Source: Patescibacteria group bacterium (GTDB lineage: Bacteria; Patescibacteriota; Patescibacteriia; PEXW01). From it: DNA of 64,000 bases. Positions 27,610 through 61,470 of the stretch are shown here, piece after piece. A program made the position numbers and the translations under genes. Each line of letters opens with the position of its first letter. Positions within the stretch are counted from its first letter, which is position 1. The stretch spans positions 2,913 through 66,912 of the forward strand of contig JBAYJA010000005.1 in assembly GCA_041665345.1 (NCBI GenBank), written 5' to 3'. The notes beneath the pieces were generated by a model, which worked only from the letters and a program-made list of their open reading frames with translations, did not search any database and was not told where the DNA came from.

Positions 27610-28239
27610 CTATCGTTTTGTCGCGGGTTTCACCGCTTCAATGCTCAGCCAGCGTACTTCGCGGCGTTTACTTTCATCGGCAAAATGTTGAGATGCTTGA
27701 ATGCGGAAACCTGCAGTACGCAGAAGGCTGGTCATTTCTGCTTTGGTAAAGTAGGTGAAGAAGCGGGGCTGAGGGGCAAGTTGGTCGGTCACCCAACCAG
27801 AATCGCGTCCAATTTTTACGCGGACATGGAGAAGCCCACCAATCCGGAGGATGCGGAAGAAATGTCGCAATACCCGGGGAATGTCCTTTCTTTGCAGATG
27901 CAGAAGAACGGCATTTGCCCAAATCGCATCAAAGGTTTGCGGGCGAAAAAGTATTTTTCGTGCGTCCATGACTTTGAATACTGCTTTTGGCACCCGAGCT
28001 TTTGCAATTCTAATAAAAACCGTACTTGAATCAATGCCAGTCAGCCGAAAACCCTGCTGGACAAAAAAATTCGCATCTCGTCCACCAGCGCACCCAACGT
28101 CAAGAATATGTGCACCTGGGGTTAGATGCTTCGCAAAAGTTTTTCGCTCTGGTGGGGCGAGTGATTCCACTGCTGCGGTATACAAACGCCCAAGCGTGTT
28201 GTACGCCTGGCGCGTTTTTTGGTAGACCGTGTTTGGCAT
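27610..28239 (-). CDS. class I SAM-dependent methyltransferase
   Basis: ILDVGCAGGRDANFF (motif I); start ATG overlaps the gdhA stop by 1 nt. Confidence 0.6.
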   Translation of the reverse strand: MPNTVYQKTRQAYNTLGRLYTAAVESLAPPERKTFAKHLTPGAHILDVGCAGGRDANFFVQQGFRLTGIDSSTVFIRIAKARVPKAVFKVMDARKILFRPQTFDAIWANAVLLHLQRKDIPRVLRHFFRILRIGGLLHVRVKIGRDSGWVTDQLAPQPRFFTYFTKAEMTSLLRTAGFRIQASQHFADESKRREVRWLSIEAVKPATKR

Positions 28240-29516
28240 TACTTTACCAACCCCCGGGCTTGCATGGCATCCACAATGCGCTGGATGGCCAGCACGAAAG
28301 CTGCGGTGCGGAGGGAGATTTTCTTCTCTTGTGCAATGGCCCACACTTGGTCAAAGCTCTTTTCCATAATTGGCTGCAAACGACGCAGTACCTCGGCTTC
28401 CGTCCAACGGTCGCCCTGGTTATTCTGCACCCACTCAAAGTAGGAGACAGTCACGCCACCCGCATTAGCCAGCACGTCTGGCACCACCGGGATCCCCCGC
28501 TTCTGCAGACGCTCATCCGCATCGGGCGTCAGCGGGCCATTCGCCATTTCGACAATCGCCTTCGCTTTGATTTTCCCCACATTGTCTTTGGTGATGGCAT
28601 TCTCCAGCGCCGCCGGCACCAGCACATCCACATCCAGTTTCAAAAGTTGTTCGTTGGTAATTTGCTGGTAGTGCTCGCAGTCGCACACTGTACCCACGCA
28701 GTAGCAGCCATCAATGAGCCCTTTCTCCTTCTTCGCATCCATAATGTGCTTGGGATCCATGCCCTTGCGGCGCTTGTCCAGAATGCCACCGCGAGAGTCA
28801 GACACGGCAATCACTTTGTACCCAGCAGCGTGCAGCTTCTGGGCAATGAAGTAACCCACATTCCCAAAGCCCTGGATTGCAACTGTGGTCTTCCCAGGTT
28901 TCAGTTTCAGTTTTTTTGCCAAGGCTTCAAACACGTAGAATCCCCCTTGGCCAGTTGCTTCGGTGCGGCCTTCGGAGCCACCGATGGCAAGTGGCTTCCC
29001 GGTGAATGTTCCAGGTTGCCATTCGCCAGTCACCCGGCTAAATTCATCAACCATCCAGCCCATGATGGTGGGGTTGGTGTACACGTCTGGCGCCGGGACG
29101 TCACGGTTGGGACCCAGGTACTGGGCAAACGCTCGTACCCATCCGCGGGAGAGTTGCTCCAGTTCATGCTGGCTCAGTTTTTTTGGATCAACCGTCACGC
29201 CGCCTTTCCCTCCACCAAAGGGAATGCCCACCACTGCACACTTTACCGCCATCCAAAATGATAATGCCTTCACTTCATGCAAATCCGTTTTGGGGTGGAA
29301 TCGAATGCCGCCCTTGAATGGTCCGCGGGCATCGTTGTACTGCACCCGGTAGGCTTGGAACACTTTGGTGGATCCATCATCCATCCGCACCGGTACGCCG
29401 GATTCCAGTATGCGCGTGGGTCGTTCAAGTTGTCCCCGAATGTCTGTTGAGAGGTTGAGGATATCCGCAGCTTTTTTCAACTGGCTCATTGCACTGGTGA
29501 ATGGATTGGTAGGCAT
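28239..29516 (-). CDS. gdhA: glutamate dehydrogenase
   Basis: 425 aa; GGGKGG, the Glu/Leu/Phe/Val dehydrogenase N-terminal domain, and a Rossmann GFGNVG motif. Confidence 0.9.
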   Translation of the reverse strand: MPTNPFTSAMSQLKKAADILNLSTDIRGQLERPTRILESGVPVRMDDGSTKVFQAYRVQYNDARGPFKGGIRFHPKTDLHEVKALSFWMAVKCAVVGIPFGGGKGGVTVDPKKLSQHELEQLSRGWVRAFAQYLGPNRDVPAPDVYTNPTIMGWMVDEFSRVTGEWQPGTFTGKPLAIGGSEGRTEATGQGGFYVFEALAKKLKLKPGKTTVAIQGFGNVGYFIAQKLHAAGYKVIAVSDSRGGILDKRRKGMDPKHIMDAKKEKGLIDGCYCVGTVCDCEHYQQITNEQLLKLDVDVLVPAALENAITKDNVGKIKAKAIVEMANGPLTPDADERLQKRGIPVVPDVLANAGGVTVSYFEWVQNNQGDRWTEAEVLRRLQPIMEKSFDQVWAIAQEKKISLRTAAFVLAIQRIVDAMQARGLVK

Positions 29517-29790
29517 AGTAGTTACGAATTACGAATACGGTTACGAATTACGAAATAGAGACACGTCACCGCTCTGAGCGGGATCCCGCCTTCTTTAGCT
29601 CAGGTGCAGAAAGTGGCGGGAAAAATACGAATGGGGAAAGATTAGATAGAAGAAGAGCTATTGTCCTTCACCCAATCCGTTCTCCCCTTACCAAGGGGAG
29701 GGGCGGAGGGATAACCCTACTGAGAAAAACCTGACCCTTAAAAGAAAGATTATTACAACTGGCGTGATCTCTACAGCTCTATGGCTTTAC
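29517..29790 (-). repeat. modular intergenic repeat, copy E1 (TTCGTAA heptad array plus G-rich modules)
   Basis: ttacgaattacgaatacggttacgaattacgaa directly abuts the gdhA ATG; atacgaatggggaaag and ccccttaccaaggggagggg modules are shared with the other copies. Confidence 0.55.
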
Positions 29791-29794
29791 GGCT

Positions 29795-30769
29795 CTACAG
29801 CTTTTTCTTCGCGCCCCAGTCAATGAAGACTGCGGGTTTCCCCTGGGATTTTTGAATATACTCAAAAGCTTTCAGTGCAGCCTTTGCGCCTTCACCCGCG
29901 GAGACAACAACCTGCTTAAACGAGATGGTGGTCACATCCCCAGCGGCAAAAATACCTGGAACACTGGTTTCACAATCTTTCGAAATGACAATTTGATTTC
30001 GCTTATCCAGCTCCAGCAAACCTTTTACCAAGTCTGGCTTTACCACATATCCAATTTCTGGGAATACTCCATCCACAGCCAAGCGCTGCACTTTTGTTGG
30101 ATCATCTGCTCTGGCAACGACTATCTCTTTTACCATTTCATCTCCAACAATCTCCAAGACGTTTGAAAAAGGAGTCAACTCAACCGTTTCCGCGGCCACC
30201 ACTTTTTGCGCCAGCGTGGCTTCGCCAACCGGGCACTCGCCCAAGCAAATGAGGTAGACTTTCGCCGCAACGTTTGAGAGTAGTAACGCTGAGTCCATGG
30301 CCGAGTTGCCGCCACCCACTACCGCCACAGTTTTCCCGCGGAATTTTTCCGCATCGGCATACGCGCTGTACGAAACGCCATGGCCAATGAGCGCATCTTC
30401 ACCCGGGACATTCATATGCTTGTGTGACAAGCCGTACGCCAGAATGACTGCACGGGCAGTGAATTGATTCCGAGCAGTGAGCACGTGGAAGAATTCATCA
30501 TCAGCTTTCTCCACTTTGCGGACTTCGTCAATTTTCACCACCGCGCCAAATTTTTCCGCCTGCTCCCGAAACAGCGTGGACAGATCTCGCCCATGGATCA
30601 TGCCCATGCCGGGGTAATTCTCAATGTGCGGCGTGGTGGCTGCCTGACCGCCAATGTCTTGGGAGATGATGAGCGTCGACAAACCCCGACGTGTCGCAAA
30701 AATGCCAGCCGTTAAACCAGCTGCTCCACCCCCAACAATGATGACGTCCAGCACTTGCTCGTCGGCCAT
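29795..30769 (-). CDS. trxB: thioredoxin-disulfide reductase
   Basis: VIIVGGGAAGLTAG FAD site, CLGEC?-type redox-active region, second GGGNSAMD NADPH site; adjacent to trxA. Confidence 0.85.
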   Translation of the reverse strand: MADEQVLDVIIVGGGAAGLTAGIFATRRGLSTLIISQDIGGQAATTPHIENYPGMGMIHGRDLSTLFREQAEKFGAVVKIDEVRKVEKADDEFFHVLTARNQFTARAVILAYGLSHKHMNVPGEDALIGHGVSYSAYADAEKFRGKTVAVVGGGNSAMDSALLLSNVAAKVYLICLGECPVGEATLAQKVVAAETVELTPFSNVLEIVGDEMVKEIVVARADDPTKVQRLAVDGVFPEIGYVVKPDLVKGLLELDKRNQIVISKDCETSVPGIFAAGDVTTISFKQVVVSAGEGAKAALKAFEYIQKSQGKPAVFIDWGAKKKL

Positions 30770-30773
30770 ATAC

Positions 30774-31097
30774 TTACATGAAGCGTTTTACTTGTTCCAG
30801 AATTGCCGGCTTCTGCTGCAAGCCCGCAGCACGCCATACTTCTTTGCCGCCTTTGAAGATGGCCAACGTTGGAATGCTCATAATGCCATACTGCTGTGCG
30901 GTGGCGGGGTTTTCATCAACATCCAATGCTCCAACAGTAGCCTTATCCCCAAGTTCCTTCGCAATTTCTTCAATTATTGGTCCCTGCACCTTGCATGGCC
31001 CGCACCAGGTAGCCCAAAAATCAACCAATACGGGTTTTGCCATTTCGCCCAGTACATCACTCTGAAAATTCTGATCTGTAAACTGTCTACCTGACAT
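30774..31097 (-). CDS. trxA: thioredoxin
   Basis: WATWCGPCK active site; 107 aa. Confidence 0.9.
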   Translation of the reverse strand: MSGRQFTDQNFQSDVLGEMAKPVLVDFWATWCGPCKVQGPIIEEIAKELGDKATVGALDVDENPATAQQYGIMSIPTLAIFKGGKEVWRAAGLQQKPAILEQVKRFM

Positions 31098-31535: not shown

Positions 31536-31960
31536 TCATTACGAAATACGAAAAAAGATACGAATATACGAATTACGAAATAAAGGAGATACGCCCCGCG
31601 GAGCGGGGTCCGGCTTCGCCGGAAATATACGAATATACAAATGGGGAGAGGACGGGGGTAACTCCGAGTGCGGGTCTCTGTGCCCGCAGCTCGACCCGGG
31701 ATGGATTGGAGGATGGGGAGGGTTTGGGTGTAGAGGCTTGTTAGGTTGGAAGGTTAGGGTATGGGCTTCAGAAGGACAGACCCTTTCTTCCAAACCCTAC
31801 ACCCTAACGAGCATCCATACCCTTGCCTACCTCACCGGTCACTTTCCGAGCCGGCCACCGGCCCGGAGAGTGACCGACCCAGGTTCCACCCCGGGCTCCC
31901 TCCGGGGCAGAGCCCGCCCCAGAGGGAGGGAGGACAGAAAAGCCACGCCTCGTTGCTACT
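31536..31960 (-). repeat. modular intergenic repeat, copy E2
   Basis: Heptads (ttacgaaatacgaa...atacgaattacgaa), the conserved double hairpin gatacgccccgcggagcggggtccggcttcgccgga (31585..31625), GGGGAG/GGGTTTGGGTGTAG G-rich modules, and cctaacgagcatccatacccttgc at the far end. Confidence 0.6.
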
Positions 31961-32788: not shown

Positions 32789-33532
32789 TTAAGTTGCTAG
32801 CAATGCGAGTGCCTGCTGAACGTACGTTTTTGCTTTACGAAGATCCAAATGGTCATTCGCGTCACGGAGCCTTCCCTGCGCGTCAATGCTGCAATCCGCA
32901 AAAGTTCTAAACAACTTCTTGAGCGTGCTGAGATTATTTCCCTCTAATCCACCGGCGACCCCCATCCCATAATTGCCTAAGGCTTTTTCGGTAAACTTCC
33001 AGGCAAGTTCGGGGTCAATCGCTTTCCCCTCTCCTCCACTAAGGTCAAAAAGTATATCAGTGGCTATCCCTTCGTACTTCTGTGTCTCATCTGCACACGC
33101 ATCAATATCCCTATCGAATTCCTGCAGCGCATCGCGCCCAATTTGGAGCACCAGCCTTGCCTTCGGGTACACTTTTCGAAACCTCTGCAGTACCCGTGAG
33201 TCTGGCCAGGCGATATTCAGCTGCAGCCCGTCGCAGTCTTTCCCTGCCAGCTCATACGCGTAGGCCATTTGGTGAAAAAGTCCAATGCTGTCGCTTGTGT
33301 AGTAGTGAAGAAGGTTCAGAATACCTTTTCTTTTTGGAAAAATCTTTTCAATTTCCAATCGGGATGGTGTTTGATTTGGGAAAAGGTCTGGCTCACCAGC
33401 CAGGGTTTTGTTTGATGCAAGCACACCAAGCATCAAGTCATGGCTACATACTTCAGGCAATAGTCGAGCCAAGGTCAAAGCCTGGTGCCTTGATGTAATG
33501 CCTGTTACACCAATGTACGGTCTATTATTCAT
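32789..33532 (-). CDS. TIM-barrel protein, phosphoribosylanthranilate-isomerase-like
   Basis: IGVTGITS near the N-terminus and GVAGGLEGNNL near the C-terminus resemble PRAI. Start moved to MNNRPY (33532); the ORF's first 26 codons are a translation of the 22-bp palindrome. Confidence 0.4.
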   Translation of the reverse strand: MNNRPYIGVTGITSRHQALTLARLLPEVCSHDLMLGVLASNKTLAGEPDLFPNQTPSRLEIEKIFPKRKGILNLLHYYTSDSIGLFHQMAYAYELAGKDCDGLQLNIAWPDSRVLQRFRKVYPKARLVLQIGRDALQEFDRDIDACADETQKYEGIATDILFDLSGGEGKAIDPELAWKFTEKALGNYGMGVAGGLEGNNLSTLKKLFRTFADCSIDAQGRLRDANDHLDLRKAKTYVQQALALLAT

Positions 33533-33591
33533 GTAAAACTCCTTTGTTGGTTTCTTTTCTTTCACCCTAAAGGTGATATCAGAAAAAAGCA

Positions 33592-33612
33592 ATTGTTCCA
33601 CGTGGAACAATC
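33592..33612. promoter_or_regulatory. palindrome AATTGTTCCACGTGGAACAAT (copy 1), about 60 nt upstream of CDS 32789..33532
   Basis: Exact copy of the palindromes at 34167 and 34442. Confidence 0.55.
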
Positions 33613-33733
33613 AAATTTAAATCATTCACGTGTATTAGCATGTACGATCTTTTTTCTCAATCGGGGACAAGCCAATAAGACCACCATTCTCGATTAGGCA
33701 GTTATTAGTGCTGCATTAAAATCTCTGAATCTT

Positions 33734-33869
33734 GGGGTCCCCGCGAACGTGGCGCGCAACCCCGCTACGGGGTGAGCACGCGTTTGTGGGGTAAAGCGAG
33801 GCTTCGCGCGGAGTCCGGAGTGGAGTCGTAGCAACGGCTACACGCAGGGCGGAGCGCGAAACGAGTAGC
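33734..33869 (-). repeat. tRNA-trailer element copy T5 (downstream of tRNA-Ala GGC, separated by a hairpin-rich insertion)
   Basis: Minus strand: gctactcgtttcgcgctccgccctgcgtgtagccgttgctacg...cgcgaagcctcgctttaccccacaaacgcgtgctc...gcgcgccacgttcgcggggacccc; same family as T1-T4. Confidence 0.6.
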
Positions 33870-34060
33870 TGCCCTTCGACTCCTCGTCTGACTCGTCGCT
33901 CAGGGCGCTCGACTCGAAAAATGGCTTGCCGGCCGAAGCCCGAGGAGGATCATTAGTCCTCCTACGCTCAGAAGCTTCGGCCTACGCCGACCGAAGTCGG
34001 CTCTGGCCGACGTAGGTCGGAGGACAGCCTTCGCCCTCGATAATGCTCGAGGGCGAAGGC
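33870..34060 (-). repeat. about 190-nt hairpin-rich insertion between tRNA-Ala(GGC) and trailer T5
   Basis: Contains at least four strong stem-loops, for example ccttcgccctcgagcattatcgagggcgaagg, cgtaggaggactaatgatcctcctcg and gacgagtcagacgaggagtcg. Confidence 0.45.
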
Positions 34061-34136
34061 TGGTGGACCTCAGGAGACTCGAACTCCTTACCTCTTCCAT
34101 GCCATGGAAGCGCTCTACCAGATGAGCTAGAGGCCC
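34061..34136 (-). tRNA. tRNA-Ala (anticodon GGC), CCA encoded
   Basis: Reverse complement gggcctctagctcatctggtagagcgcttccatggcatggaagaggtaaggagttcgagtctcctgaggtccacca folds as a cloverleaf; G3:U70 Ala identity pair; anticodon loop aTGGCat. Confidence 0.85.
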
Positions 34137-34166
34137 ATATTGGGCGTACTTTAACATACCTACCAT

Positions 34167-34188
34167 AATTGTTCCACGTGGAACAATT
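34167..34188. promoter_or_regulatory. palindrome AATTGTTCCACGTGGAACAATT (copy 2), about 30 nt upstream of tRNA-Ala(GGC)
   Basis: Perfect 22-bp inverted repeat with a CACGTG core. Confidence 0.55.
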
Positions 34189-34201
34189 GTAACTAATCCC
34201 T

Positions 34202-34338
34202 GGATCCCGCGAACGTGGCGCGCACCCTGAGCACAGCCGAAGGGGAGCACGCGTTCGTGGGGAAAGGGGCAACCTTGTGGAGGGTGTAGTGGGGTGGACT
34301 TGCTCTGCCACACGAAACCCGACGCAAGGATTGACCCG
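34202..34338 (-). repeat. tRNA-trailer element copy T6 (after tRNA-Ala CGC), with a diverged 5' half
   Basis: 3' half ccccacgaacgcgtgctc...gcgcgccacgttcgcgggatcc matches the family; the 5' half is diverged. Confidence 0.5.
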
Positions 34339-34412
34339 TGGTGGACCTGGGGAGAATCGAACTCCCGTCTCAGCAATGCGAATGCCGTGTTCTACCACTG
34401 AACCACAGGCCC
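34339..34412 (-). tRNA. tRNA-Ala (anticodon CGC), CCA encoded
   Basis: Reverse complement gggcctgtggttcagtggtagaacacggcattcgcattgctgagacgggagttcgattctccccaggtccacca; G3:U70; anticodon loop tTCGCat. Confidence 0.8.
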
Positions 34413-34441
34413 ATATTTGGCTTAGGTAAGCGTTATTTTCT

Positions 34442-34463
34442 AATTGTTCCACGTGGAACAATT
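34442..34463. promoter_or_regulatory. palindrome AATTGTTCCACGTGGAACAATT (copy 3), about 30 nt upstream of tRNA-Ala(CGC)
   Basis: Exact 22-bp palindrome. Confidence 0.55.
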
Positions 34464-34570
34464 AAATTTCAATAATTTGGCTTTATCCTGACCCAAAGCC
34501 ACCTTCTCTTAGCCTGGGTCAAGGGACCCAGGCCACCCACTTTTGAGCTATTCTTTAAGAGTACTAAAAT

Positions 34571-34721
34571 CTTCGGGGGTCCCCACAGATGTGGCGCGCA
34601 GTCTCCCGAGCGTAGTCGAGGGGGACGAGCACGCGTCTGTGGGGTAAAGCGAGGCTTCGTGCGACGGGCGGAGCGGATTCGGTAGCAACCGGATACGCGC
34701 AGCTCTGAGCACGAAACGAGC
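34571..34721 (-). repeat. tRNA-trailer element copy T4 (after tRNA-Arg CCU)
   Basis: Minus strand: gctcgtttcgtgctcagagctgcgcgtatccggttgctaccgaatccg...cacgaagcctcgctttaccccacagacgcgtgctc...gcgcgccacatctgtggggacccccgaag. Confidence 0.65.
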
Positions 34722-34796
34722 TGGTGCCCCCGGAGGGAATCGAACCCCCATCTCTCCCTTAGGACGGGATTGCTCAATCCATTGAGCTACAGGGGC
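34722..34796 (-). tRNA. tRNA-Arg (anticodon CCU), CCA encoded
   Basis: Reverse complement gcccctgtagctcaatggattgagcaatcccgtcctaagggagagatgggggttcgattccctccgggggcacca; cloverleaf with anticodon loop gtCCTaa. Confidence 0.75.
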
Positions 34797-37575: not shown

Positions 37576-37815
37576 ATAGGGTTACGAATTACGAAAAGAT
37601 ACTACGAAAATACGAATGTACGAATGGGGATACGCCCCGCGGAGCGGGGTCCGGCTCCGCCGGAAATTACGAATGGGGAGGGTGGGAATACGGGACTCAA
37701 GATTGTAGAGTGTCTCCCTCGCCCTCTGAGGGAGAGAGAGGGTTGGTTATGGTTCCCAGCGCGGGTGTCCCTGCCCGCGCTGGACTGGGGATGGTTGGAG
37801 GGTGAGGGGTAGGTA
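37570..37815 (-). repeat. modular intergenic repeat, copy E3
   Basis: gttacgaattacgaaaagatactacgaaaatacgaatgtacgaatgggg; double hairpin gatacgccccgcggagcggggtccggctccgccgga (37627..37665); G-rich modules. Confidence 0.6.
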
Positions 37816-37888
37816 AAGAAAACCCCACCTCGTGCAGAAGTGGGGTTATGAAGATTACCAACGAAAATGACTATTCGATGCATGAAGT

Positions 37889-60800: not shown

Positions 60801-60876
60801 GCGCCCGTAGCTCAACGGATAGAGTACATGGCTTCGAACCATGGGGTTGGGGGTTCGATTCCCTCCGGGCGCACCA
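60801..60876 (+). tRNA. tRNA-Arg (anticodon UCG), CCA encoded
   Basis: gcgcccgtagctcaacggatagagtacatggcttcgaaccatggggttgggggttcgattccctccgggcgcacca; anticodon loop cTTCGaa. Confidence 0.8.
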
Positions 60877-61026
60877 GCTCGTTTCGTGCTCCGCCCTGCG
60901 TGTAGCCGTTGCTACGGCTCCACTCCGGACTCCGCACGAAGCCTCGCTTTGCCCCACAAACCCGTGCTCCCCTTCGATTCGCTTCGCTCACTCAGGGTCC
61001 GCTTCGTGTTTGTGGGGACCCCGAAG
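60877..61026 (+). repeat. tRNA-trailer element copy T1
   Basis: gctcgtttcgtgctccgccctgcgtgtagccgttgctacggctcc...cacgaagcctcgctttgccccacaaac...gtttgtggggaccccgaag; starts at the first nucleotide after CCA. Confidence 0.65.
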
Positions 61027-61033
61027 AAAGCTC

Positions 61034-61110
61034 GGGCAACTAGCTCAGTTGGTTAGAGCGTCTCGTTTACACCGAGAAGGTCGTAGGTTCGACTCCTACG
61101 TTGCCCACCA
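61034..61110 (+). tRNA. tRNA-Val (anticodon UAC), CCA encoded
   Basis: gggcaactagctcagttggttagagcgtctcgtttacaccgagaaggtcgtaggttcgactcctacgttgcccacca; anticodon loop tTTACac. Confidence 0.85.
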
Positions 61111-61247
61111 GCTCGTTTCGCGCTCAGAGCTGCGCGTATCCGGTTGCTACCGAATCCGCTCCGCCCGTCGCGCGAAGCCTCGCTTTACCCCAGAAACGCG
61201 TGCTCGTCCTGATGCAGGACTGCGCGCCACATTTCTGGGGACCCCGG
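61111..61247 (+). repeat. tRNA-trailer element copy T2
   Basis: gctcgtttcgcgctcagagctgcgcgtatccggttgctaccgaatccg...cgcgaagcctcgctttaccccagaaacgcgtgctcgtcctgatgcaggactgcgcgccacatttctggggaccccgg. Confidence 0.65.
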
Positions 61248-61257
61248 AAAAAATTAT

Positions 61258-61333
61258 GGGCCCTTAGCTCATTTGGTAGAGCGCCGCGTTTGCAACGCGG
61301 AGGTGACCGGTTCGAGCCCGGTAGGGTCCACCA
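61258..61333 (+). tRNA. tRNA-Ala (anticodon UGC), CCA encoded
   Basis: gggcccttagctcatttggtagagcgccgcgtttgcaacgcggaggtgaccggttcgagcccggtagggtccacca; G3:U70; anticodon loop tTTGCaa. Confidence 0.85.
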
Positions 61334-61470
61334 GCTCGTTTCGCGCTCAGAGCTGCGCGTAGACGTTGCTACGTCTCCGTTCCGCCCTTCGCGCGAAGCC
61401 TCGCTTTGCCCCACGAACGCGTGCTCGTCCTGCGGCAGGACTACGCGCCACATTCGTGGGGACCCCGGAG
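61334..61470 (+). repeat. tRNA-trailer element copy T3
   Basis: gctcgtttcgcgctcagagctgcgcgtagacgttgctacgtctcc...cgcgaagcctcgctttgccccacgaacgcgtgctcgtcctgcggcaggactacgcgccacattcgtggggaccccggag. Confidence 0.65.

Follow-up and report, generated by a model that had tools for sequence, protein, structure and literature searches.

Two described kinds of binding site for proteins of the ParB family are closest to the palindromes considered here. The Noc-binding site (NBS), approximately ATTTCCCGGGAAAT, is the site for Noc, the ParB paralogue in Firmicutes; its centre is CCCGGG, and NBS sites are numerous and scattered. For the other kind, parS, the general consensus is TGTTNCACGTGAAACA, the Pseudomonas putida site is TGTTCCACGTGGAACA, and the entries for P. 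aeruginosa and Myxococcus xanthus are TGTTCCACGtGGAACa and TGTTCCACGTGGAACG, respectively (PMC7022226). No published description of parS in Patescibacteria came up when the literature was searched for parS or ParB in this phylum.

Here we consider three palindromes in the DNA of an uncultivated Patescibacterium, lying in a stretch of 64 kb (the whole stretch that was analysed, called the window below). Based on their sequence, the three palindromes are very probably chromosomal parS, that is, centromere-like loading sites for ParB (Spo0J). The palindrome is a known kind of element in a new instance, in an uncultivated phylum, and is no new regulatory principle. Searching the window with up to three mismatches allowed, we find the 22-mer AATTGTTCCACGTGGAACAATT exactly at 34167-34188 (parS-2, core 34170-34185) and at 34442-34463 (parS-3, core 34445-34460), while the third copy, at 33591-33612 (parS-1, core 33594-33609, with A/T flanks), reads AATTGTTCCACGTGGAACAATC and agrees with the 22-mer at 21 of 22 positions, its last base being C. 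The earlier note had described three exact 22-bp copies beginning at 33592, 34167 and 34442, which holds for the latter two in both sequence and start, whereas the first begins one base earlier and departs at one position; the palindrome that the three copies share without a mismatch is 20 bp long, ATTGTTCCACGTGGAACAAT, and the inner 16 bp of all three is TGTTCCACGTGGAACA. With the same tolerance of three mismatches the 22-mer has no fourth match in the 64 kb and none in 100 shuffles. With the same tolerance, the 14-bp core gives extra matches in the window at the chance level only, and half sites, counted in the window, show no excess elsewhere. The three palindromes thus all lie inside 873 bp and the other 63 kb of the window is without a copy; no full site is present either on locus L122, which takes in the remaining ~3-3.6 kb of the 67.6-kb contig.

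All three sites are followed by units on the minus strand. parS-1 lies 58 nt upstream of the ATG of the CDS at 32789-33532, parS-2 lies 30 nt upstream of tRNA-Ala(GGC) at 34061-34136, and parS-3 lies 29 nt upstream of tRNA-Ala(CGC) at 34339-34412, so that the previously given spacing of 30-75 nt fits two of the distances and is missed by the 29 nt of the last. The identities given before for the two tRNA-Ala genes were borne out by ARAGORN and Rfam, which also place tRNA-Arg(CCT), having no parS upstream, at 34722-34796 on the minus strand; Rfam at both gathering and permissive thresholds finds only tRNAs in the parS region. Between parS-2 and parS-3, 23 nt, AATTGTTCCACGTGGAACAATTA, comprising the palindrome and one flanking base, are 100% identical, and in the 29-30-nt spacers between these sites and the paralogous tRNA-Ala genes about half of the positions match outside the last 9 nt. 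The identity of the palindromes amid diverged spacers points to selection, or gene conversion, that would act on the palindrome itself.

The core TGTTCCACGTGGAACA is identical to the parS of P. putida and fits the consensus TGTTNCACGTGAAACA at 15 of 16 positions, the entries of P. aeruginosa and M. xanthus having one variable end base; each of the three copies contains a 16-bp palindrome matching tGTTNCACGTGAAACa. A full-text literature search for the 12-bp centre returned mostly papers on bacterial DNA partition (ParB/parS/Par) or on ParB-like proteins. The A/T bases on either side of the core, which bring the palindrome to 20-22 bp, represent, judged from the flank count below, the usual flank preference of parS and no separate motif. 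In this count, which covers 88 sites other than the search seeds and hence 176 half-site flanks, A is present at −2 in 124 and at −3 in 95 of the flanks, and A or T is present at −1 in 153. Since the flanks at other parS sites are A/T-rich, an extension to 20-22 bp is ordinary for parS.

The distribution of the exact 20-mer in other genomes is also consistent with parS. A scan with it, in which each species was represented by one genome, gave at least 120 blocks of 8 kb from at least 12 phyla; the matches listed include Acidobacteriota, Bacteroidota, Bacillota, Verrucomicrobiota, Planctomycetota, Nitrospirota, Bdellovibrionota, Proteobacteria, Spirochaetota, Gemmatimonadota, Actinomycetota and Patescibacteria. 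An exact sequence common to at least 12 phyla is what is expected of a universal centromere and not of a lineage-specific operator. The 120 blocks listed contain 235 core 16-mers, with half of the blocks holding 2-11 core sites, often within a few hundred bases. Moreover, a ParB of the classic type (motifs LGRGL, GERRxRA and ENLQREDLNP) is encoded in 26 of these 120 blocks, while parB would be expected by chance in ~0.3% of random 8-kb blocks of a 3-4-Mb genome; the palindrome thus co-occurs with parB across genomes. Domains ParB_N and HTH_ParB are present in six of the block ORFs that were sampled, and one more sampled ORF is ParA.

Within Patescibacteria, seven blocks are present among the matches listed, six having clusters of 3-8 sites and one (L105) having a single site, which adjoins trxB. 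In Moranbacteria (L070) three parS sites lie 0.5-1 kb upstream of dnaA-dnaN, and in Kerfeldbacteria (L005) tRNA-Val and tRNA-Ala(GGC) are interspersed among four sites, after which come trx, trxB and gdh. In L018, L040, L075 and L084 the clusters lie inside an ORF for a Wzy_C-like membrane protein, and those of L075 and L084 adjoin tRNA-Ala(GGC), with or without Arg(CCT) or Ala(CGC). tRNA-Ala(GGC) neighbours the parS clusters of the Patescibacteria L005, L075 and L084, as it also does in L030, with the distance from parS being 4, 30, ~170, ~330 or ~530 nt depending on the genome and with the orientation varying too. Within the phylum, the surroundings of the parS array are conserved. The related MAG locus L125 says nothing about conservation, because it hardly differs from the window.

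It is noted that the protein partner is present in the phylum, because the cultivated Patescibacterium Southlakia epibionticum encodes adjacent Soj/ParA (K03496) and ParB (K03497), SEML1_0183/0184, with the ParB carrying PF02195 and PF17762 and with ParA/ParB classed as growth-defect/essential in Tn-seq (PMC10633639). A ParB profile search of a set of 5.8 billion proteins gave no entry named as Patescibacteria among the best 120.

Two separate observations concern the loci just described. The neighbourhood of parS array and tRNA-Ala(GGC) with trx-trxB-gdh is common to the window (28239-31097 and 33591-34463) and to the Kerfeldbacteria locus L005 (140-7998). In L075 (7040-7990) and L084 (780-1800) nested modules are seen, in which a complete parS or a GC-rich hairpin is enclosed by the half sites ATGTTCCAC ... 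GTGGAACAT; this suggests that elements were inserted into or around parS, as if into its centre.

The genes of the window are otherwise housekeeping ones: purL, ddl, transketolase, gdh, trxB, trx, infB, clpP, rny, ymdB and sigma-70; the rest of the 67.6-kb contig contains four tRNAs. The organism is a Patescibacteria MAG, and the NCBI proteins identical to those of the window carry the label "Patescibacteria group bacterium". ParB, ParA and DnaA are absent from the ~50 window ORFs as searched with Pfam, a ParB HMM has no match among all ORFs of the window and of the rest of the contig, and the remaining ~3-3.6 kb holds no par genes, no dnaA and no cluster of DnaA boxes. DnaA boxes in the window show no excess (14 matches against 12.3 expected), and there is no skew inversion in the window. 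The CDS downstream of parS-1 encodes a conserved hypothetical protein of Patescibacteria of 247 aa with no Pfam match, and its ATG at 33532 is preceded by the ribosome-binding site AAGGAG. It had been noted before that the palindrome, translated as MFHVEQL, creates spurious ORF starts, and this is indeed seen for the ORFs 32789..33610 and 33982..34461. The public gene calls of this CDS include 270-aa versions (P0020, P0022 and P0023), as compared with 247 aa from the ATG; from their length we infer that these calls start inside the palindrome and are an annotation artefact induced by parS. The presence of parS thus accounts for a recurrent artefact, namely ORFs starting with MFHVEQ or MFHVEH and over-long calls that begin in parS. 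Elsewhere in the window, the non-coding stretches 31540-31960 and 37580-37860 share a 74-nt repeat with 78% identity (31553-31626 and 37594-37667), in which TACGAAT-like units are combined with a GC hairpin (ACGCCCCGCGGAGCGGGGTCCGGCT.CGCCGGAAAT), with G-rich sequence coming next; these stretches have no Rfam match, and long spurious ORFs are called across both of them.

We now turn to the other explanations of the palindrome. The first is that it is an operator or promoter, where a dimeric transcription factor binds it, or it is the promoter itself, with both tRNA-Ala genes and the CDS downstream under its control. Such a role is suggested by the position of the three copies, all of which are intergenic and 29-58 nt upstream of minus-strand units, and by a weak sigma-70-like match, TTGAAA-18-AACAAT, that overlaps parS-3; moreover, ParB itself is described as repressing the promoters next to parS3 and parS4 of P. 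aeruginosa (PMC5521831) and, by spreading, as modulating the competence genes of Streptococcus pneumoniae (PMC4488948). We nevertheless regard this explanation as very improbable. The motif is upstream of only two of the ten tRNAs of the contig, with tRNA-Arg(CCT) of the same cluster being without it, and none of the four other units of tRNA and trailer on the contig has it; in the other genomes only one of 235 sites among the matches listed has a tRNA within 150 nt. By the refuting condition given with the earlier note, the motif does not mark transcription units. The distance to tRNA-Ala(GGC), ranging from 4 to ~530 nt across genomes, and the changing orientation do not fit a promoter element. 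The regulatory role raised earlier is also disfavoured by the sites that lie inside ORFs in several Patescibacteria, often inside the Wzy_C-like one. Nor does the site go with the CDS: for homologues of the latter (~38-43% identity) in Buchananbacteria, Paceibacterota, Magasanikiibacteriota and Uhrbacteria, the flanks of up to 10 kb on each side (5.4 kb upstream in L136, which ends there with its contig) contain no site even when two mismatches are allowed, and these four loci have no ParB either. An operator or promoter would be expected to lie at a fixed distance in most members and to travel with its gene in relatives, and neither is seen. In the earlier proposal of a site for a dimeric protein or of a shared promoter or processing element, it is therefore the first part that stands, as a predicted site for a ParB dimer, and not the operator, promoter or processing signal. 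A side effect of ParB on neighbouring transcription is possible by analogy with the cases above, and on the plus strand a weak promoter-like sequence may overlap with parS-2.

The second alternative involves the GC-rich sequences that crowd the tRNA loci, which were described as trailers before and which merit separate study. They are a structured element of ~145 nt that follows seven of the ten tRNAs of the contig (three Ala, two Arg and two Val), beginning 0-2 nt after the CCA end of its tRNA; tRNA-Pro, tRNA-Phe and tRNA-Ile of the contig have no copy. A covariance model built from three copies on the plus strand (33730-33868, 34198-34338 and 34571-34723) detects three minus-strand copies (60875-61026, 61109-61249 and 61332-61470; E-values between 1e-29 and 1e-36), and each of the other three tRNAs in the window has one of these directly behind it. 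The rest of the contig adds a seventh copy, which comes after tRNA-Val(GAC) (L122 12051-12181, plus strand). In metagenomes, a scan recovered another seven copies on six contigs, and in five cases the copy lies directly against a tRNA 3' end (Met, Leu, Arg, Asp or Ser). With all 14 copies taken together, pairing is seen in 94.8% of cells and compensatory double changes in 25 of 42 pairs, values reached by 0 of 500 shuffles. The structured strand is the one antisense to the tRNA, with the G·U pairs numbering 24 and 23 there against 2 and 3 on the tRNA-sense strand, and with 11 mismatches (at 24 G·U) against 33 (at 2 G·U). The element has no match in Rfam 15. It is probably a more interesting object than the palindrome.

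Several further observations concern this element or the tRNA loci. Just upstream of two copies on the structured strand there are sigma-70-like matches, TAGGCA-16-TAAAAT at 33695-33722(+) and TTGAGC-16-TAAAAT at 34543-34570(+), and at the third copy the corresponding position overlaps parS-2. In the cluster at 60.8-61.5 kb the gap between an element and the next tRNA is only 8-12 nt, leaving no room there for a promoter of the element's own. tRNA-Val(GAC) and its element are separated from tRNA-Ile(GAT) by a small gene for a GIY-YIG nuclease (L122 12260-12500(−) and L124 5798-6049(−)). One copy is separated from tRNA-Ala(GGC) by a run of GC-rich hairpins of ~190 nt (33869-34060), and in L132 (62-240) a GC-rich insert of 139 nt has a 20-nt direct repeat of the tRNA-Asp 3' end (GATTCCCTTCGGGTCCGCCA) on either side. 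These two inserts share TCGAAGGGCAGC, and they suggest repeated site-specific insertion right after the CCA at the 3' ends of tRNAs. In addition, L134 (2405-2500) contains a tRNA-like sequence (GCCGATGTAGCTCAGCTGG ... GGATAGAGC), for which ARAGORN made no tRNA call and whose D-loop is interrupted by a GC-rich hairpin of ~55 nt (GGGCAGCAGCGA...GCGCTGCCC).

With these elements so close, it could be argued that the palindrome is a part or an insertion target of GC-rich, mobile-looking elements crowding the tRNA loci, with no role in partition. Each parS is followed on the plus strand by the first helix of a structured element 16-127 nt away, the end of parS-2 lying ~10 nt before the element 34198-34338 and ~16 nt before its first helix, and the half sites of L075 and L084 flank GC-rich hairpins or a complete parS, as would be expected on this explanation. 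Against it, the four further element copies on the contig are without parS, none of the seven copies in other metagenome contigs has one, the spacing between parS and element is variable, and the core is the universal parS. We give this explanation a still smaller probability than the operator or promoter one, and the narrower form of it, in which the palindrome is part of the structured element, was rejected, 11 of the 14 element copies having no parS nearby. The least probable explanation, that the palindrome acts as an RNA hairpin, being an intrinsic terminator or a processing site between the tRNA units, is disfavoured, since although the palindrome is able to form a stem of 9-10 bp and parS-1, followed on the minus strand by CTTTTTTCTG, was flagged as terminator-like, alone among the copies, the T run is present at this one of the three copies only, the stems are A/T-rich at their ends and not the GC-rich hairpin with a U run of an intrinsic terminator, the terminator scan of the region gave 5 sites against 3.4 expected, and the same sequence is kept across phyla whatever the transcription context.

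Taking the three palindromes as chromosomal parS, the following pathway can be proposed by analogy with described ParABS systems. ParB dimers would recognise each 16-bp site, and each site would load CTP-bound ParB clamps, which would then slide onto the flanking DNA. The clamps would build the partition complex, which ParA would move and by which SMC would be loaded or recruited. With three sites in 873 bp, the array would act as one strong loading zone. ParB binding, clamp loading and the segregation role in this organism are thus transferred from these systems. A more far-reaching model, which we consider improbable, is that the centromere of Patescibacteria is a parS array placed at a conserved landmark, namely tRNA-Ala(GGC) and trx-trxB-gdh, and not at parAB. 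In this model the loaded ParB may gate its neighbours, with parS-2 overlapping a putative −35 element of the structured RNA antisense to the tRNA, so that assembly of the partition complex could be coupled to the expression of the tRNA and of the RNA family.

If the three sites are parS, as is very probable, the probable centromere of an uncultivated bacterium with an ultrasmall genome is placed on this contig. The cluster may then serve as an anchor for ordering the contigs of MAGs and for studies of ParB or SMC in the phylum.

Finally, we compare the locus with the known systems. As in chromosomal parS of ParABS systems, the 16-bp core is identical, the sites are palindromic and, on the 67.6-kb contig, few in number and tightly clustered, and they co-occur with parB across genomes. 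Unlike in the known chromosomal cases, the 67.6 kb here are without parAB, dnaA or oriC, tRNA genes lie among the sites, and the host is an uncultivated Patescibacterium. As with the effects of ParB at parS3 and parS4 of P. aeruginosa and at the com locus of S. pneumoniae, the sites lie beside promoters and spreading could dampen the neighbours; unlike in those cases, this would be at the window sites a putative side effect and not the defining function. As with the NBS, the site is a palindrome of similar length for a dimer of the ParB family; by contrast with the NBS, the sites of the window have the parS-type centre CACGTG and form a single cluster.
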